IMG/VR virus record: IMGVR_UViG_2778261353_000008
DNA: 43,754 bases
Source: a virus
Lineage: Duplodnaviria > Heunggongvirae > Uroviricota > Caudoviricetes
Direction: 5' to 3' (one strand)
Part shown: positions 1 through 19,478 of the stretch, one piece after another
Numbering within the stretch: position 1 is the stretch's first letter
Layout of the letters: every line of letters begins with the position of its first letter
Made by a program: the position numbers and the translations under genes
Notes under the pieces: model-generated
What the model was told of the DNA's origin: nothing
Databases searched by the model: none
Seen by the model: the letters and a program-made list of their open reading frames with translations, nothing else

Positions 1-1164
1 TTACGCCTTCTTTATATCCTCCATAATTCCAGAGTGGGACATATTTGGGACATTATCACCAAAAATGTCGTCTATTTTCCTCGCATGCTCTGTCAAATGA
101 TTAGGCGCAAGGTGAGCATACCTACGAACCATTTCTATGGACTCCCATCCGCCCATTTCCTGAAGCACTGATAATGGGACGCCTGACTGAATCAGCCAGC
201 TTGCCCAGGTGTGTCTGAGGTCATGGAAACGGAAATCTTCAATTCCTGCACGACGACAAGCTGATAGCCATGATGTCTTGCTGTCGATGCGCATCTTCCT
301 GACCGCAGGCGTTGATGTTCCATCTGCTCGCTTAGCCGCCTTGGTATGTACAAACACCCATTTGTGATGCTTGCCTATTTGATCACGCAACACTTTACAG
401 GCGGTATCGTTCAGCGCCACACCAATGGCGCGGTTTGATTTGCTCTCTTCTGGATTCACCCAGGCAACTCGTCGCTGCATGTCGATTTGTTGCCATTCCA
501 GATTTATGATGTTCGACTTTCTCAGACCAGTTGCCAGCGCAAACTTGACGACAGATTTCAGTGGTTCGGGGCACTCATCAATAAGGCGTTTTGCTTCCTC
601 CTTTTCCAGCCATCTGACTCGCTTGTTTCTGACCGCTGGTATCTTGATGACAGGCGCTTTTTCCAGCCACTTCCAGTCGCGTTCTGCAGCACGGAGAATG
701 GCCTTTATCATGGCAAGATGCTTTGCCTTTGTCTGAGTTGATACTGGCTTTGGTTCATAAACAGGCAGTTCTTTACCTTTCCTGATGGCGGCCTGAACTT
801 TCTGTTTCCATATTTCTTTCGTCTTTCTGTTATGCATTCTGCTTACAGCAGAGTAAATCTTTGCCTCCGAGATATCTTTAAGCCTTATACCCTCAAAATG
901 TTCAAGCCAGAACTCAATCCGGCTTTTATCTGAATCGAGAGATTTTTTATCAGCTTTTTCCTCAAGCCATCTTAGGCAGGCCTCTTCAAAAGTGACATCA
1001 GGTAAATCCCCTAGCTTTTCTACTCGCCAGAGTTCTGCTTTTCGCTTGTCGTGCAACTCCTGAGCTTGCCGCTTGTCCTTTGTGCCAAGAGATTCCTTAA
1101 TTCGTTTCCCGCCCGGGAGCGAATACGAGGCATACCATATTTCATTTCTGCGGAAGAGTGACAT
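1..1164 (-). CDS. int: Phage integrase, tyrosine recombinase (P22/lambdoid Int-like)
   Basis: 387-aa ORF; N-terminus [35 protein letters not shown] resembles P22-type Int; C-terminal catalytic region with R..HDLRHT..RRYAHL; first gene of the prophage arm, overlapped by xis. Confidence 0.93.
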
Positions 1165-4988: not shown

Positions 4989-5121
4989 TTTTTGGGACTC
5001 CTGGCTGATTAAGTATGTCGATAAGGCGTTTCCATCCGTCACGTAATTTACGGGTGATTCGTTCAAGTAAAGATTCGGAAGGGCAGCCAGCAACAGGCCA
5101 CCCTGCAATGGCATATTGCAT
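4957..5121 (-). CDS. cIII: CIII (FtsH inhibitor stabilising CII), 54 aa
   Basis: Hand-translated from reverse complement: [54 protein letters not shown]; overlaps kil as in lambda; absent from ORF track (<60 aa). Confidence 0.88.
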   Translation of the reverse strand: MQYAIAGWPVAGCPSESLLERITRKLRDGWKRLIDILNQPGVPKNGSNTYGYPD

Positions 5122-5193
5122 GGTGTGCTCCTTATTTATACATAACGAAAAACGCCTCGAGTGAAGCGTTATTGGTATGCGGTAACGCCGCGC

Positions 5194-13919: not shown

Positions 13920-14056
13920 TGTTTGAGTTTAATATGGCAGAACTTCTTCGCCACCGCTGGGGGCGTCTGCGCTTATATCGTTTCCCCGGTTCTGTTTTGA
14001 CCGATTACCGAATACTGAAGAATTACGCCAAAACACTGACAGGAGCAGGAGTATGA
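13916..14056 (+). CDS. YlcG-like 46-aa protein
   Basis: Hand-translated [46 protein letters not shown]; start overlaps rusA stop; same size and rusA-to-Q position as DLP12 ylcG. Confidence 0.45.
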
Positions 14057-14141
14057 AGTCAGAGATAACAATCAACTAATACTGTTTTGTTGATTTTTGC
14101 TTGTAATTGGCGTTCTGGTCTGAGTTTTGTGGAGTAAGTTG

Positions 14142-14519
14142 ATGCGTGATATTCAGATGGTTCTTGAGCGTTGGGGAGCGTGGGCGGCTAATAATCATGA
14201 AGATGTGACCTGGTCGTCCATTGCCGCCGGTTTTAAGGGATTAATTCCTTCAAAAGTAAAATCTCGCCCACAATGTTGTGACGATGACGCGATGATCATT
14301 TGCGGGTGCATGGCCCGTCTGAAAAAGAACAACAGCGATTTGCATGATTTATTGGTGGACTATTATGTCGGCGGCATGACTTTTATGGCGCTTGCACGTA
14401 AGCATGGGCGATCTGATTGTTGGGTTGGCAGGATGCTTCAGAAAGCTGAGGGCGTAGTGGAGGGTATGCTGATGGTGTTGGATCTCCGATTGGAGATGGA
14501 TGCTGATTGTTCGAAATAA
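14142..14519 (+). CDS. Q: Late-gene antiterminator Q (non-lambda Q family, DLP12/phage-21-like size)
   Basis: ORF 14127..14519 trimmed to ATG after GGAG RBS ([31 protein letters not shown]...); 125 aa; positioned just upstream of a terminator and the lysis region. Confidence 0.75.
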
Positions 14520-14619
14520 TTAAAGGAAAAGTTGCTGTCTGATTGTCATTAGTCTAACATTTTAAATGTTGGAATCGCAACGTAGTTATTATCATATAAC
14601 AGCTTGTTTCCTGATTTAG

Positions 14620-14648
14620 CCAGCCTCCCCAAAGGCTGGTCTTTTTCT
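14620..14648 (+). terminator. tR'-like rho-independent terminator downstream of Q
   Basis: CCAGCCT / AGGCTGG stem with CCCCAA loop followed by TCTTTTTCT. Confidence 0.6.
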
Positions 14649-14674
14649 AATAAGTATTATTTCGGGTAGGGATT

Positions 14675-15199
14675 TTATTGTTTAACCCATAATAATTCAT
14701 TGACATTGAATCCCAACTTTTGAGCGGTTCGCACATAGTCTGCTTTTACTTTATCTGGAATAGTTGGGGTCCTTGCCAGAATCCATAGGTATTCTCTGTT
14801 CGGACCACTGACAAGAGCATACTTATACTCATCATCCAGTTTGATTACATTATAGCCACCATAGAAGGGGCCAAAAAACGAAACCTTCAATGCTGCAGTT
14901 TTAGTATCTCCAGTAAAGTATGCTTTACCTTCGCTCTCGCTCCATTTATTTTTCGTTGGATCGTATCCACGGTTAAGTACACGAATCCCTCCGTCGTTCC
15001 GTTTTCCATAAGTAGCGCTGACCTGTTCCAGACCACGTTCGAACCGGTTCTCGAGGCGAGCTATTTCATACCATTTTCCGAGGTAGCGGTTGGCGTCAAA
15101 ATTTGTAATCGGCTGCACACCTTTAGGTGGTGTCGGGGCCTTACATGCTATAAGAGTGAAAGAGAGTGCAATGCCAGTCAACACAGGCCATAACTTCAT
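14675..15199 (-). CDS. blc: Blc-like bacterial lipocalin (outer-membrane lipoprotein)
   Basis: 174 aa; lipoprotein signal with lipobox LIAC; strong similarity to E. coli Blc as I recall it (NFDANRYLGKWYEIARLENRFERGLEQVSATY...YFTG...AALKVSFFGPFYGGYNVI...YLWILARTP). Confidence 0.85.
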   Translation of the reverse strand: MKLWPVLTGIALSFTLIACKAPTPPKGVQPITNFDANRYLGKWYEIARLENRFERGLEQVSATYGKRNDGGIRVLNRGYDPTKNKWSESEGKAYFTGDTKTAALKVSFFGPFYGGYNVIKLDDEYKYALVSGPNREYLWILARTPTIPDKVKADYVRTAQKLGFNVNELLWVKQ

Positions 15200-15391
15200 A
15201 ATAAATCCTGTACTTTTGATAGTTGAGAGTAAGTATGAAAGATAGATGATTACGACCGATCACTTAAAGAACTTTCATACTATATTAGGAATAGTCCATA
15301 ACAGAAAAATTGTCAGTGATGACGCCAGAAAGGCAATTTATTCCGTGCACTACACAGTTTATGTGTTAATGAATTAGTCAAGGGGGAGAAT

Positions 15392-16351
15392 ATGATAAAA
15401 AAACCTGTGATTGGAATCAGCGGTTGTTTGGCCGGTTCTGCTGTTCGTTTTGATGGTGGTCACAAAAGAGCTGACTTTTTAATGGACAAATTAGTGGAAT
15501 GGGTAACATTCAGACCAGTATGTCCGGAAATGGCTATAGGGCTGCCAGTTCCGCGTCCTGCTCTACGTCTTGTGCGCTCGATGCAAGGAAATATACGGAT
15601 GTGTTTCAGCCACGACCAGAATGAGGATGTGACAGAGAGAATGACAGAGTTTAGTCGTTCTTATATGGACAAATTAAAGGATGTATCGGGGTTTGTGGTT
15701 TGTGCTAAATCTCCCAGCTGTGGCATGGAGCGCGTGCGTGTCTATGATGAAAATGGTAATCGAGGTCGTAAAGATGGAGTGGGACTATTTACGAGCACTT
15801 TGATGGAAAAGTTTTCCTGGCTACCGGTTGAAGAGGATGGGCGATTACATGATCCAGTGCTTCGTGAGAATTTTGTTGAAAGAGTTTTTGCTTTGCATGA
15901 GCTCAATCACCTTTACAAGGAGAAATTATCAAGAAGAGAGTTATTAGCTTTTCATAGTCGTTATAAGCTTCAGTTGTTGGCGCATAGTCAGGCAGGCTAT
16001 AAAGATATGGGACCATTTGTGGCTGCAATACACGAGTGGGCGGACCTTGAATCATACTTTGAGGTGTATCGTGATAAGCTGATGGCGATTCTCAGAAAAC
16101 CTGCATCACGTAAAAATCACACGAATGTGCTGATGCATATACAGGGGTATTTTAGTAACTACTTAAGTACACGCCAGCGTAAAGAGTTGAGCGAGGTTAT
16201 ACTTAACTATCGTTCTGGCACATTACCTCTTCTTGCGCCGTTGACTCTGCTGAAGCATTATCTGGGTGAGTATCCTAATGATTACTTGCTTACACAGAAT
16301 TACTTCGATCCCTATCCGGACGAACTGGCTCTAAGACTGATGGTAAATTAA
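15392..16351 (+). CDS. DUF523/DUF1722 fusion protein (TudS-like N-terminal domain, YbgA-like C-terminal domain)
   Basis: 319 aa; N-terminal Cys in IGISGCLAG, PVCPE, AKSPSCGME consistent with Fe-S-binding DUF523/TudS-type proteins; C-terminal half YbgA-like; assignment from motif memory. Confidence 0.6.
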   Translation: MIKKPVIGISGCLAGSAVRFDGGHKRADFLMDKLVEWVTFRPVCPEMAIGLPVPRPALRLVRSMQGNIRMCFSHDQNEDVTERMTEFSRSYMDKLKDVSGFVVCAKSPSCGMERVRVYDENGNRGRKDGVGLFTSTLMEKFSWLPVEEDGRLHDPVLRENFVERVFALHELNHLYKEKLSRRELLAFHSRYKLQLLAHSQAGYKDMGPFVAAIHEWADLESYFEVYRDKLMAILRKPASRKNHTNVLMHIQGYFSNYLSTRQRKELSEVILNYRSGTLPLLAPLTLLKHYLGEYPNDYLLTQNYFDPYPDELALRLMVN

Positions 16352-16702
16352 TTGTATGCGATATCATCCAAAAGGATGAGTTCCTGCATGCAGGATATTT
16401 ACAATCGTAAAAACTACACTATGATACCCAGAGTGTCAGTTTGTATAAAAACTCTGTTTACGCTGAAGAAACAATTGAGATGCAACTTAAAGTTGGTAAA
16501 CATGCCAGTCAAAATATATAATATTATGATTCCACGCAGCTATATATAATATAACAGATTGGTTTAATAATTTGTCTTTGTGAGTTAAATACATAATTTT
16601 ATACTTGTGATGCAATGAAATTTTCCTTATTGTTGAACTGGCGAATATTGATTTTCCACCTATACTTACCTGGTGTAACCCCAATGATATCAGGTGGATA
16701 AT

Positions 16703-17434
16703 ATGCCATACATATGTTCTATCATTTTGGTGTTGAACTCGTTTGATGTCCGAATTGGTAAAGAAGATATTTTGTTTAAAAAAGGAAGTGCTGTTCTCAT
16801 TGATTACAATTTAAAAGATTTTTTTTCATCAAATATAGATCATGTAATGATCGTAGATGTTGAAGAGAAAACAGTTAATGATTTCTTTAAAAGCAACACA
16901 CTCTCACCTTTTTCTGTAAGAAGGTTTTATCCGGCATACTTGATGGTGGAATGTGAAGATTTTTCATTGTTAAAGAACTTGATTGCATGCTTGAATTGTG
17001 ATGGCAGAACTGTGGATTTTGTTAGAAATCAAATATCACTTGCATGTCTTGCTATCTTATCTTCAGAGAAAATAGTGCAAAGTTTTTTATTTGGATGTCT
17101 TAATAGTTTAGGAAGTAAAGTTAAGGCTATTATTCACACGGATATATCTGCAGCATGGAGACTTTGTGATATATCTTCAAGACTGTATCTGAGTGAAAGT
17201 CTGTTAAAAAGAAAATTAAAGCACGAAGGCTTATCATTTAGTAAGTTAATTCTTGAAGAGCGAATGGTGATGGCGGAAAGGTTATTAAGCTACAATTTAT
17301 ATTCTGTTGGAAAAGTTGCTGAGATATGCGGTTATGAAAACACGTCATATTTTGTAAGTGTTTTCAGAAGGTATTTTGGTGTTCCTCCCCATCAATATTC
17401 ATCAAGATTTTTTTTAGAAAAAGACATGATGTAA
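16703..17434 (+). CDS. AraC-family transcriptional regulator (AppY-like)
   Basis: ORF 16694..17434 trimmed to first ATG; C-terminal AraC HTH (LSESLLKRKLKHEGLSFSKLILEERMVMAERLL...VAEICGYENTSYFVSVFRRYFGVPPHQY); N-terminus MPYICSIILVLNSFD resembles DLP12 AppY; AT-rich gene. Confidence 0.8.
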   Translation: MPYICSIILVLNSFDVRIGKEDILFKKGSAVLIDYNLKDFFSSNIDHVMIVDVEEKTVNDFFKSNTLSPFSVRRFYPAYLMVECEDFSLLKNLIACLNCDGRTVDFVRNQISLACLAILSSEKIVQSFLFGCLNSLGSKVKAIIHTDISAAWRLCDISSRLYLSESLLKRKLKHEGLSFSKLILEERMVMAERLLSYNLYSVGKVAEICGYENTSYFVSVFRRYFGVPPHQYSSRFFLEKDMM

Positions 17435-17621
17435 CGTGATGCGTTTTAATGATTTTGTAATTTTCGTATTTGATAATTGTATGATGCTTTCAGCTACGCC
17501 AGAATAATCGCGGCGTTTTTCTTTTTGAATAGATGTTCAAGCCTTACGCTAATGTAACTTCTATACCTTTCCTCTTCGTTCCGAACCGTGTACACCATCC
17601 GTTATTTGCGGAGGTGAGGCT

Positions 17622-17837
17622 ATGAAATCCATGGATAAGTTAACAACGGGTGTCGCCTATGGCACCTCAGCAGGTAGTGCCGGTTACTGGTTTTTACAGC
17701 TGCTCGATAAAGTCACGCCCTCACAGTGGGCAGCAATAGGTGTGCTGGGTAGCCTGGTATTTGGCCTGCTGACGTACCTGACAAACCTTTATTTCAAGAT
17801 TAAAGAAGATAAGCGCAAGGCTGCGAGAGGTGAATAA
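17622..17837 (+). CDS. S: Holin, class II pinholin (phage 21 S21-like), dual-start motif
   Basis: 71 aa [45 protein letters not shown]... closely matches S21. Confidence 0.9.
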
Positions 17838-18334
17838 TGCCTCCATCATTACGAAAAGCCGTTGCTGCTGCTATTGGTGGCGGAGCAATTGCTATAGCAT
17901 CAGTGTTAATCACTGGCCCAAGTGGTAACGATGGTCTGGAAGGTGTCAGCTACATACCATACAAAGATATCGTTGGCGTATGGACTGTATGTCACGGGCA
18001 TACAGGAAAAGACATCATTCCCGGTAAAACGTATACCGAAGCAGAATGCAAAGCCCTCCTGAATAAAGACCTTGCCACGGTAGCCAGACAAATTAACCCG
18101 TACATCAAAGTCGATATACCGGAAACAACGCGCGGCGCTCTTTACTCGTTCGTCTATAACGTGGGCGCAGGCAATTTCAGAACATCTACTCTTCTTCGCA
18201 AAATAAACCAGGGCGATATCAAGGGCGCATGTGACCAGCTACGTCGCTGGGCATACGCTGGCGGTAAGCAATGGAAAGGCCTGATGACTCGTCGTGAGAT
18301 TGAGCGTGAGGTCTGTTTGTGGGGGCAACAATGA
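17837..18334 (+). CDS. R: SAR endolysin (lysozyme, R21-like)
   Basis: 165 aa; N-terminal signal-anchor-release segment ([20 protein letters not shown]) followed by lysozyme domain; ATG overlaps holin stop. Confidence 0.9.
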
Positions 18335-18823: not shown

Positions 18824-19117
18824 TTATTGTGAGCAATACACACGCGCTTCCAGCGGAGTATAAATGCCTAAAGTAATAAAACCGAGAAATCCATTTACGA
18901 ATGTTTGCTGGGTTTCTGTTTTAACAACATTTTCTGCGCCGCCACAAATTTTGGCTGCATCAACAGTTTTCTCCTGTCCAATTCCCGAAACGAAGAAATG
19001 ATGGGTGATGGTTTCCTTTGGTGTTACTGCTGTCGGTTTGTTTCCAACAGTAAACGTCTGTTGAGCACATCCTGTAATAAGCATTGCCAGAGCGGCAGAA
19101 AACAACATTTTTTTCAT
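18824..19117 (-). CDS. bor: Bor lipoprotein (Iss-like serum-resistance factor)
   Basis: ORF 18824..19165 trimmed to MKKMLFSAALAMLITGCAQQTFTVGNKPTAVTPKETITHHFFVSGIGQEKTVDAAKICGGAENVVKTETQQTFVNG..., 97 aa, matching lambda Bor. Confidence 0.9.
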   Translation of the reverse strand: MKKMLFSAALAMLITGCAQQTFTVGNKPTAVTPKETITHHFFVSGIGQEKTVDAAKICGGAENVVKTETQQTFVNGFLGFITLGIYTPLEARVYCSQ

Positions 19118-19478
19118 CTTATTATCCTGCATTGTTAAAAACGGCAGAATCCTATGTGACAACAATTAAACGATAGTTAAATGGATTGATGAAAATTAAA
19201 ACTATATAGGTGGATGCTCAGCCTATTGGAGGAGGGGGGGGCACTCAGAATCCTGTGGAATGAAATAAACCGCTCTATCTGTCCATTACCCTTTTAGCTG
19301 CGCTGTATCGTCGCCGTATTCCCGCATTAACCATGACCGTAGCCCGACGGGGAATTCCTTCTGCGTGAGTGTGCGGGAATAATCAAAAACGATGCACACC
19401 GGGTTTTACTGTGCTGACAGACGCAGGGTTACCCTCATAGTCGCTTTTCCGGTGCGATGGTGGAAGAAACCGGGATGT

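Follow-up and report, generated by a model that had tools for sequence, protein, structure and literature searches.

The window analysed here, the whole 43,754-nt stretch IMGVR_UViG_2778261353_000008, carries an intact gene for an AraC/XylS-family regulator, which is cargo (a 'moron') between the Q antiterminator and holin genes of an E. coli lambda-like prophage. Judged by sequence, the protein is an uncharacterised PatE-like cousin of PatE, PsrA/B and AppY, with PatE as its closest characterised relative. With moderate confidence, we favor the reading that this is a functional two-domain factor carried as Q-holin cargo, which acts as a PatE-like activator of acid resistance, is expressed from promoters of its own and is damped by H-NS/Hha. 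The features on which the analysis draws are collected in Table 1.

Table 1 Features of the regulator gene and its surroundings, with positions in the window
Feature	Position	Strand	Details
Q-type late antiterminator, left slot border	14127..14519	+	phrog_79 'anti-termination protein Q-like', E 1.3e-51
tR'-like intrinsic terminator	14619..14650	+	8-bp stem, 5 G-C pairs, then CTTTTTCTAA
Blc-like outer-membrane lipocalin, first cargo gene	14675..15199	-	Pfam Lipocalin_2, E 7e-44
YbgA-like protein, second cargo gene	15392..16351	+	DUF523/TudS 2-thiouracil desulfidase domain and DUF1722
AT-rich intergenic region	16352..16702		31.9% GC
P1, distal promoter-like site	16398..16425	+	TTTACA, 16 nt, TATGAT
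P2, proximal promoter-like site	16638..16666	+	-35 CTGGCG (16638-16643), 17-nt spacer, -10 TATACT (16661-16666), C at -13
Shine-Dalgarno AGGTGGA	16691..16697	+	5-6 nt before ATG
AraC/XylS-family regulator gene, PatE/Psr-like	16703..17434	+	243 aa, RefSeq WP_001146308.1
N-terminal domain, residues 1-135	16703..17107	+	small beta-sheet and helices in model
T8 homopolymer in regulator gene	16819..16826	+	codons 39-42; single-base deletions in some copies
C-terminal DNA-binding domain, residues 136-235	17108..17407	+	Pfam HTH_18; sequence and structure matches to PDB 3MKL
HTH1	17162-17230	+	residues 154-176
HTH2	17306-17380	+	residues 202-226
Weak terminator-like hairpin after regulator gene	17496..17526	+	ACGCC...GGCGT, then TTTTTCTTTTT; in minimum-free-energy fold
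Holin (EssD-type), right slot border	17622..17837	+	RefSeq essD

A two-domain protein of the GadW/YdeO/AppY/PatE/Psr clade

The reading frame of the regulator gene is intact, with 243 codons between the ATG at 16703 and a stop that ends at 17434. The mechanically called ORF opens at a GTG (16694), which we rejected as the start. We place the start at the ATG because the Shine-Dalgarno sequence AGGTGG lies 6 nt upstream of it, the RefSeq product has 243 aa and the resulting N-terminus, MxxxCS(V/I)I, aligns across all homologues. The CAGGTGG at the ribosome-binding site is invariant in the six aligned alleles.

The protein scores above the Pfam cut-offs for HTH_18 (PF12833; 54.9 bits versus 33.6, profile positions 2-79 of 80, residues 161-237) and for HTH_AraC (PF00165; 44.1 bits versus 26.6), and it has a C-terminal domain, roughly 100 residues long and containing two HTH motifs, of the kind typical of AraC/XylS proteins. 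It also matches phrog_1450 (E = 3.5e-107), which PHROGs lists as 'unknown function', and the RefSeq product is a 'helix-turn-helix domain-containing protein'. Our search of the literature and databases returned no paper on the protein and generic names only. An alignment of 11 clade members contains 24 invariant columns, mostly inside the two HTH motifs. These include S164, S166, L167, K169, L172, E175, R187, M188 and A191, as well as A206, C209, G210, Y211, S215, Y216, F217, F221, G226 and P229. The invariant K169 aligns with AppY K170, a DNA-contact lysine and the residue changed in the K170E mutant control of AppY (PMC10057817). The initial annotation had set a degenerate HTH domain as one outcome that would overturn it; both motifs are complete, with the HTH structural and DNA-contact residues intact.

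The AlphaFold model of the regulator has a pLDDT of 85.6. Its DNA-binding domain superimposes on the GadX domain (PDB 3MKL) with an RMSD of 1.4-1.7 Å and a TM score of 0.86-0.89, and also resembles the DNA-binding domains of MarA, SoxS and AraC. The same PDB entry is matched by sequence (E = 2.5e-20). Together with the Pfam scores, this superposition bears out the original assignment to the AraC family. Residues 1-135 are modeled as a separate domain, presumed to serve in dimerization or regulation.

We further compared the protein with characterized regulators, taking the PatE and PsrA reference sequences from Sakai. Over approximately 235 residues each, identity is 54% to PatE, 39% to PsrA, 34% to GadW, 32% to AppY and 32% to YdeO, and GadX aligns locally at 41% over 101 residues of the DNA-binding domain. 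Relatedness to PatE is highest in the DNA-binding domain (72%, against 41% for AppY) and is 40% in the N-terminal domain (54/135). The HTH1 recognition helix, SESLLKRKLKHEG, is identical to that of PatE at 12 of 13 positions and the second helix at 10 of 15, in comparison to 8/13 and 7/15 for AppY. The best NCBIfam match is YdeO (E = 7e-37), at 127.3 bits versus a cut-off of 348 for the YdeO equivalog NF007407; the GadX equivalog NF007432 scores 85.5 bits, from the DNA-binding domain only, versus a cut-off of 500. The protein is not an orthologue of AppY (b0564), given its 32% identity and a gene position between Q and holin rather than at the right end of DLP12 by ompT. For the PatE/Psr group, which has no curated model, full-length homology is closer than to the chromosomal paralogues, and the regulator shares the trait of being cargo on lambdoid prophages. 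It belongs to the narrow enterobacterial GadW/YdeO/AppY/PatE/Psr clade of AraC/XylS factors. The earlier label "AppY-like" holds at the level of this subfamily but not for closest kin, since AppY equals YdeO in identity and falls below GadW and, by a wide distance, PatE.

The cargo cassette, its distribution and its selection

The carrier is a lambdoid prophage at the argU/DLP12 site, and the initial proposal of a prophage-borne regulator was thus correct. Homology to K-12 DLP12 stops at 14501 and resumes at 17611, and the block 14502-17610 stands in place of the nmpC block of the K-12 prophage. The gene at its left border is labeled 'antiterminator Q family protein' in RefSeq. The slot contains three cargo genes, of which the regulator gene comes third, after a Blc-like lipocalin gene (316 bits versus a cut-off of 267 for the NCBIfam Blc subfamily) and a YbgA/TudS-like gene, whose product matches PF04463 (E = 4.5e-40), PF08349 (E = 5.8e-41) and, over its full length, phrog_3275. 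A PADLOC search for anti-phage defense genes gave no match for the regulator or its two neighbors.

A terminator scan of 14000-18000 found the tR'-like site as the only terminator-like site. The weak hairpin beyond the regulator gene was rejected as an intrinsic terminator: the stretch folds no better than shuffled sequences (z = +0.6), and the hairpin fails the scan because its loop is too long. From the organization of lambdoid late operons, Q-modified late transcription is expected to pass tR' into the cargo and lysis genes. Since the regulator gene lies between tR' and the lysis genes, Q-dependent read-through would also transcribe it during lytic growth.

Gene order (Q, blc(-), ybgA(+), AraC(+), holin) does not vary among those copies of the window clade (at least 85% identity) that have enough flank, and comparison with a lambda-hybrid allele (88% identity across 4 kb) shows that the whole block diverged together. 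Such linkage would fit a regulator that served the phage or its own cassette, controlling the blc-like and ybgA-like genes from their divergent promoter region at 15200-15391 or the expression of late or lysis genes, and most regulators encoded by K-12 prophages are indeed thought to act on prophage genes (PMC10057817). We nonetheless regard this role as unlikely. The 64% and 56% alleles have no cargo partner and are flanked immediately by the holin and by Q genes of other families, an arrangement that marks the regulator as an independent module; PsrA likewise occurs without blc and ybgA, PatE-type relatives sit at the opposite prophage end, and all characterized relatives have chromosomal genes as their targets.

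The integration site raises a second alternative, in which the protein would be a true AppY equivalent that drives hya, cbd/app, gadE, gadY, nhaR and RpoS stabilization and substitutes for a missing appY. The two regulators are alike in clade, extreme AT content and integration site, and AppY also activates gadE. In UTAK-18, the closest complete genome, the right end of the prophage beside ompT lacks appY and carries an alpha/beta hydrolase gene instead. Equivalence is improbable, however, in view of the low identity to AppY, both overall and in the DNA-binding domain, the recognition helices, which match PatE better than AppY, and the different position in the prophage.

The regulator is widespread, with a match in 1085 of 5426 complete E. 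coli genomes (about one in five), at two or more prophage sites and in mostly non-EHEC hosts. It is also present in isolated, active phages (IdasGreatGrand and lambda hybrids) that have kept the ability to form plaques. Outside Escherichia, a scan of species representatives, which relied on exact peptide patterns and is insensitive for that reason, returned one contig only, from a mis-binned MAG. A relative is encoded on 282 IMG/VR contigs, and among the best 80 of these 282 viral-contig copies 72 are intact and 8 are broken. With frameshifts or stops in about 10% of the phage-borne copies, the regulator gene is therefore dispensable. In each of the six broken copies that were aligned, single-base indels fall in the T8 tract or close by, at A residues (16778, 16799); these homopolymer indels may be sequencing errors. 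Insertion of IS1 as a means of activation in strain ET82 was rejected, as the element lies downstream of the regulator gene and not in the promoter region. The gene is under purifying selection: compared with the 82% allele, dN/dS is 0.26 for the whole gene and 0.15 for the part encoding the DNA-binding domain.

The AT-rich spacer and expression of the regulator gene

The initial annotation had described the gene and about 350 bp upstream as very AT-rich. Composition counts agree: the 1083 bp at 16352-17434 contain 31.9% G+C versus 50.7% window-wide (31.9% in the 351-bp intergenic part and 31.8% in the coding part, 16703-17434), and the upstream portion is the entire gap between the stop of the ybgA-like gene (16351) and the regulator gene. 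Only 0.35% of all 1083-bp segments are equally low in G+C, and every one of these overlaps this region. The two lowest non-overlapping 500-bp segments are 16397-16896 (29.4%) and 16991-17490 (31.8%), and the approximately 1.2 kb at 68% A+T around the regulator are the extreme of the window. The surroundings are less AT-rich, with 43.3% G+C in the ybgA-like gene, 43.8% in the blc-like gene and 50.1% from holin to Rz. By comparison, G+C is 31.7% in appY and 35% in patE.

The spacer diverges fast among alleles except for short conserved islands. Aligned with the 82% allele it shows 65.7% identity and 39 gap columns, compared with 87-95% identity in the flanking genes. P1, a joint best promoter match in the region (10/12 in the promoter scan), lies in a near-identical island, where the 82% allele carries a single substitution and the 85% allele two, in a spacer that is otherwise 66% identical. 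At P2, the sequence TATACTT is invariant in six of six aligned alleles, even in those at 64% and 56%, which directly follow a different Q gene. The P2 -35 element reads TTGGCA in the 56% allele; the window's own copy of P2 stays under the scan threshold (8/12), with only 3/6 in its -35 element.

Other candidate elements in the spacer were rejected. For a structured 5' leader, the fold of 16432-16720 does not improve on that of shuffled sequences (z = +0.45), and a short hairpin able to occlude the ribosome-binding site is not significant in three alleles (z -0.5 to -1.2). No Rfam family matches within 16352-16702, the sole Rfam match of the window being the lambda cIII thermoregulator at 5076-5134. 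Two small ORFs, at 16352-16549(+), which has an ATG at 16376 and is annotated in phage IdasGreatGrand, and at 16487-16684(-), were not accepted as genes: both are without a Pfam match, lose their frame in the 82% allele and diverge by indels without codon periodicity.

The region has the compositional trait of silenced DNA, an A+T content well above average across several hundred bp, and it is this content that suggests H-NS silencing of the regulator gene. We also scanned 16352-17434 for the 10-mer TCGATAAATT, which we take to be the high-affinity H-NS motif, and found no match with up to two mismatches; the motif is not enriched in the window (37 observed versus 38.8 expected). Among the relatives, expression of appY depends on H-NS among other regulators (PMC10057817), and psrA is up when the Hha-repressing sRNA HnrS is expressed (PMC13502914).

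Extreme AT content, a fast-evolving upstream region and the share of broken copies, six of them with single-base homopolymer indels, could also belong to a passenger gene that is silenced and currently does nothing in the lysogen, one that hitch-hikes in a recombination-prone slot, is fully repressed by H-NS and slowly decays. We hold this to be doubtful: the dN/dS values are low, above all in the DNA-binding domain, the promoter-like elements and ribosome-binding site are invariant down to the 56% allele, and the indels may not be real. There is also little to commend, in our judgment, a main burst of transcription from Q-dependent late read-through, by which induction or leaky Q would switch the host acid and stress program, the tR'-holin slot being the one that Shiga-toxin genes occupy in Stx phages.

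The spacer also contains a 7-nt complement to the ribosome-binding site. UCCACCU at 16654-16660, just upstream of the predicted P2 start, could pair with AGGUGGA at 16691-16697 and so block translation of read-through and P1 transcripts, sparing P2 transcripts. On this reading, which we likewise hold to be unlikely, the phage would have a means of keeping expression of the regulator in the lysogen apart from that in lytic growth.

Predicted targets and relation to known prophage regulators

To return to the reading that we favor, in the lysogen the regulator gene would be transcribed from its own promoter or promoters in the AT-rich spacer, of which the proximal TATACT promoter would be conserved clade-wide and the distal one cassette-specific, and H-NS/Hha probably bind the spacer and damp its activity. 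The protein is likely to work in the manner of PatE, PsrA/B, AppY, GadW, GadX and YdeO, and would bind AT-rich sites upstream of acid-fitness-island promoters (gadE, hdeA and neighbors) and activate them. The outcome would be raised acid resistance, with knock-on effects on traits under GadE control. Regulons commonly vary among AraC-family paralogues: AppY also controls hya and cbd/app, and PsrA acts by way of GadE to repress type III secretion.

The characterized relatives point to these targets. PatE activates gadB/C, gadE and hdeAB, and acts on hdeA from -132 to -45 (PMC10877973). PsrA and PsrB both raise the expression of GadE and YhiF, and PsrB binds the hdeA and gadE promoters (PMC10877973). 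AppY directly activates gadE, gadY, slp, hya and cbd (PMC10057817). Activation of gadE and/or hdeA and higher acid resistance are common to every characterized member of the clade (PMC10877973, PMC10057817). With the likeness of the recognition helices as indirect support for PatE/Psr-type activation, gadE/hdeA-type acid-resistance promoters are the most likely targets, as judged from sequence relatedness. The choice of targets leans on 54% identity to the nearest characterized relative, with just 40% in the N-terminal domain. By analogy with its relatives (PMC10877973, PMC10057817), the regulator may more broadly reprogram host stress and virulence genes.

AppY, PatE, PsrA and PsrB are established cases of phages wired into the acid-resistance and virulence network of the host. 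If the regulator does activate gadE or hdeA, it would commonly modify acid tolerance, in a strain-dependent manner, among commensal, livestock and ETEC-type strains, and regulators of this type would be seen to settle repeatedly in the Q-holin slot. This takes a known theme further and opens no new one, and we consider it plausible but ordinary.

The closest parallel is PatE (Z0321 / ECs_0287), from prophage CP-933H/Sp1 of E. coli O157:H7. PatE has 247 aa to the 243 of the regulator, and both are AT-rich prophage cargo with a MxxxCS(V/I)IL N-terminus. The patE gene follows the tail-fibre genes at the right end of its prophage, an arrangement also seen in phage mEp332, whereas the regulator gene lies between Q and holin. 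PsrA and PsrB (Z1789 / ECs_1087; Z2104), from effector-carrying O157:H7 prophages, belong to the same clade, with PsrA more distant than PatE. In Sakai Sp4, psrA sits just downstream of Q, a slot equivalent to that of the regulator, but linkage for the Psr genes is to tRNA genes, effector loci and pch, and for the regulator gene to the blc-like and ybgA-like genes. AppY (b0564, DLP12, K-12) shares the clade and the argU integration site of the carrier prophage; appY is at the right prophage end and the regulator gene in the Q-holin slot. GadW, GadX and YdeO are chromosomal acid-resistance regulators of the same clade, and the scores of the regulator are far under the equivalog cut-offs. The best full-length structural matches of the model are Rns, CsvR and ToxT (Foldseek E 1e-10 to 1e-6), AraC-type virulence regulators that possess a fatty-acid pocket. 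These share the two-domain layout of the regulator but only 17-21% identity, and they superimpose poorly as a whole (global TM ~0.4, RMSD ~15 Å) because the domain orientation differs.

The AT-rich block and its place in the late operon

The window carries a lambdoid prophage inserted at the DLP12 site, argU, and its first 25 kb match E. coli UTAK-18 at 99.9%. The AraC-family regulator gene (product WP_001146308.1) and the spacer preceding it have a G+C content of 31.9% (spacer 31.9%, gene 31.8%) against 50.7% for the window, confirming the AT-richness described in the initial annotation. A G+C content this low is reached in only 0.35% of 1083-bp windows, every one of them overlapping 16352-17434, and third codon positions in the gene contain 26.6% G+C. 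Since the left-hand cargo genes are intermediate (~43-44%) and the right-hand lysis genes normal (50%), the regulator gene and spacer form a separate compositional block. The frame in a mechanical ORF list opens at GTG 16694. We place the start at ATG 16703 instead, because RefSeq annotates a 243-aa product, GTG 16694 falls within the Shine-Dalgarno sequence AGGTGG, and the N-terminus MPYICSIIL aligns with the MxxxCS(V/I)IL of all homologues.

Features of the regulator region and other parts of the prophage (window coordinates)
Feature	Position	Strand	Remarks
intD integrase gene	1-1164	-	window start
lambda cIII thermoregulator RNA element	5076-5134	-	Rfam RF01804, 88.5 bits, full-length match
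Q	14127-14519	+	
tR'-like terminator	14619-14640		first element of the 3.1-kb block
blc-like lipocalin gene	14675-15199	-	antisense to the late operon
ybgA-like gene	15392-16351	+	fused DUF523 and DUF1722
Spacer	16352-16702		351-bp gap after the ybgA-like stop
P1 (distal promoter-like site)	16398-16425		TTTACA, 16 nt, TATGAT; sigma-70-like match 10/12, joint best of region
UCCACCU	16654-16660		perfect 7-nt complement of the Shine-Dalgarno sequence
P2 (proximal promoter-like site), TATACTT	16661-16667		invariant in 6/6 aligned alleles
Shine-Dalgarno AGGUGGA	16691-16697	+	
Regulator gene	16703-17434	+	243 codons, stop at 17434
A6 run	16778-16783		
T8 tract	16819-16826		
Holin gene	17622-17837	+	
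Bor/Iss-type serum-resistance lipoprotein gene	18824-19165	-	just after the lysis genes; annotated iss in UTAK-18

Homology to the K-12 DLP12 prophage breaks off within the 3' end of Q (14501) and restarts just before the holin gene (17611). Between these points the K-12 nmpC block is exchanged for a 3.1-kb block, so that the regulator is indeed prophage cargo, as had been proposed. The tR'-like site is followed by genes for a Blc-like lipocalin, a YbgA/TudS-like protein and the regulator. The lipocalin, of the outer-membrane type, belongs to the NCBIfam Blc subfamily (316 bits, cut-off 267). An identical protein, WP_000780581.1, was detected in the proteome of carbapenem-resistant E. coli and was up on meropenem (PMC13459554), so at least one cassette gene is expressed in a lysogen. 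The ybgA-like product, which matches phrog_3275 ('unknown function') over its whole length, joins a TudS-type 2-thiouracil/4-thiouridine desulfidase domain to a YbgA domain; its gene would place a thio-nucleobase desulfidase in a phage late operon.

Spread and maintenance of the regulator gene

The region was matched by megablast in 1085 of 5426 complete E. coli genomes, 592 at ≥99% and 428 at 80-90%, and a more sensitive search added ~580 genomes, many of them O157, with a PatE-type gene only. Relatives of the regulator occur on 282 IMG/VR viral contigs; among the best 80 of these, the genes run Q(+), blc(-), ybgA(+), AraC(+), holin(+) in every copy with enough flanking sequence. The block is 99.5% identical in strain AR_0085, within a degraded prophage that occupies the lambda attachment site (ybhC / ybhB-bioA), and is present in the isolated phage IdasGreatGrand (regulator protein 98.8% identical). 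A series of lambda hybrid phages carries an allele 82% identical to that of the window (alleles are named here by this identity); Lambda_2G7a (LR595865.1) and sister records LR5976xx contain this version of the entire blc-ybgA-AraC cassette between Q and holin. In these lambda-named phages the cassette looks like cargo that they gained by recombining with a resident prophage within Q and the lysis genes, which flank it. The more distant alleles (64% and 56%) occur by themselves, with the holin gene directly on one side and Q genes from two other Pfam families directly on the other. PsrA lies just after Q in Sakai Sp4, and PatE (Sp1, phage mEp332) and AppY (DLP12) occupy the right-end position after the tail-fibre genes. 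Thus, the clade uses two classic lambdoid cargo slots, and the regulator forms a module that does not depend on blc or ybgA.

Two matches call for separate comment. The sole match in a species-representative genome set, a 3.2-kb contig (JARKOR010000151.1, 99% identical) from a MAG assigned to Candidatus Nanosynbacter, is almost certainly mis-binned E. coli phage DNA. In strain ET82 (NZ_CP101005.1), an IS1A lies between the regulator and holin genes, which would sever the lysis genes from late transcription.

Relative to the 82% allele, the regulator has a dS of 0.36 and a dN of 0.093. The resulting dN/dS is 0.26 for the whole gene, falling to 0.15 over the DNA-binding domain and rising to 0.32 over the N-terminal domain. 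The gene is intact in 72 of the best 80 of the 282 IMG/VR contigs and broken in eight, six of which were aligned. Five of the six have lost one T of the T8 tract, one of them also an A of the nearby A6 run; in the sixth, two single-base indels that offset each other (one at 16799, one beside T8) lead to a stop at codon 37. These homopolymer deletions, found in about 9% of phage-borne IMG/VR copies, may reflect real slippage-prone inactivation or sequencing/assembly error.

Conserved elements upstream of the regulator

Between the window and 82% alleles, identity drops to 65.7% in the spacer, with 39 gap columns, against 87-95% in the flanking genes. Three islands are conserved, P1, P2 and the ribosome-binding site. 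P1 is held within the block TTTACAATCGTAAAAACTNCACTATGATA. The P2 TATACTT is kept even in the 64% and 56% alleles despite their quite different upstream context; 17 nt upstream of it the window has CTGGCG and the 56% allele TTGGCA. Preceded by a C at -13, TATACTT resembles a -10 region of the sigma-S type. Such a site would be consistent with the stationary-phase expression reported for patE (PMC10877973). The ribosome-binding site CAGGTGG, followed by ATG, is invariant in 6/6 alleles. A scan of the spacer against Rfam found no family and a folding test no unusually stable fold; its small ORFs were rejected as genes for want of conservation across alleles.

The Shine-Dalgarno complement UCCACCU sits just upstream of the P2 -10 element, and the 100%, 85% and 82% alleles all have the pairing. 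Transcripts from P1 or from late read-through could conceal the ribosome-binding site in this way, and P2 transcripts could not. Expression of the regulator might then follow prophage induction, with a complement placed just upstream of the predicted P2 start acting as the gate. We consider this improbable, since the 7-nt complementarity was noticed post hoc and the hairpins showed no significant gain in stability over shuffled sequences (z -0.5 to -1.2 in the three alleles).

Relationship to known regulators and proposed function

The AraC-family assignment of the initial annotation holds, with HTH_18 (54.9 bits, profile positions 2-79/80) and HTH_AraC (44.1 bits) both above Pfam cut-offs. 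Judged by these matches, the DNA-binding domain is complete, with no sign of degeneration. An AlphaFold model (pLDDT 85.6) predicts an N-terminal domain (1-135) of a small beta-sheet and helices and a C-terminal domain of seven helices; the latter can be laid over the DNA-binding domain of GadX (3MKL) at 1.4-1.7 Å, TM 0.86-0.89. Searched at full length, the model matched Rns, CsvR and ToxT. A PDB search by sequence agreed with the structural results. The best NCBIfam match was YdeO (E 7e-37, 127 bits, cut-off 348), and the GadX model scored 85.5 bits (cut-off 500), indicating that none of the named chromosomal regulators is orthologous to the window protein. Its full-length clade is narrow: in a profile-free exhaustive search of 1.84 billion cluster representatives, just 10 clusters passed E ≤ 1e-30, and 192 passed E ≤ 1e-10. 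No characterisation of the protein turned up in the literature, searched by accession and topic, database names are generic, and its PHROGs family, phrog_1450, is listed as unknown function.

We compared the regulator with K-12 AppY, EnvY, YbcM, YdeO, GadW and GadX and with O157 Sakai PatE (ECs_0287 = Z0321) and PsrA (ECs_1087 = Z1789; gene numbers from PMC10877973 and PMC13502914). Full-length identity was 54% to PatE, 39% to PsrA, 34% to GadW, 32% to AppY and YdeO, and 29% to EnvY. The proposed likeness to AppY is thus correct only at the level of the clade, and PatE is the closer relative and proper reference. The regulator gene is intact, selected and mobile, encodes an AraC-type member of the PatE/Psr/AppY/GadW/YdeO clade, and combines a late-operon cargo slot with extreme AT content.

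Acid resistance is raised by PatE, PsrB, AppY, GadX, GadW and YdeO, each of which activates gadE, hdeA or both, and the action of PsrA on type III secretion runs via GadE (PMC10877973; PMC10057817). By analogy, acid-fitness-island promoters are the most likely targets of the regulator, which would bind AT-rich sites upstream of them and switch them on. Expression of appY depends on H-NS among other regulators (PMC10057817), and psrA is up when the Hha-repressing sRNA HnrS is expressed (PMC13502914). Together with the AT composition, this suggests that in the lysogen the gene and spacer are probably damped by H-NS/Hha, with expression from P2 and/or P1 probably confined to particular conditions. 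The high-affinity H-NS 10-mer had no match in the region, with up to 2 mismatches allowed. From its position between tR' and holin, the gene would also be part of the late transcript, as Q-modified transcription past tR' would cross it en route to holin.

Prophage-borne AraC regulators are a well-known kind of element, and similar host-network integration has already been predicted for other prophage AraC/XylS members (PMC10057817); the suggested phage-to-host link is sound as a candidate. The prophage occupies the DLP12 site, as does the K-12 prophage that carries AppY. UTAK-18, the closest complete genome, has no appY at the right end of its DLP12-site prophage (NZ_CP157132.1 3455000-3472000); an alpha/beta hydrolase gene (WP_063103662.1) adjoins ompT there, the place of appY in K-12. 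Lys169 is invariant across the clade and aligns with AppY K170, whose K170E mutant served as a control (PMC10057817). The first recognition helix, SESLLKRKLKHEG, is identical at 12/13 positions in PatE and 8/13 in AppY, and identity to PatE rises to 72% within the DNA-binding domain.
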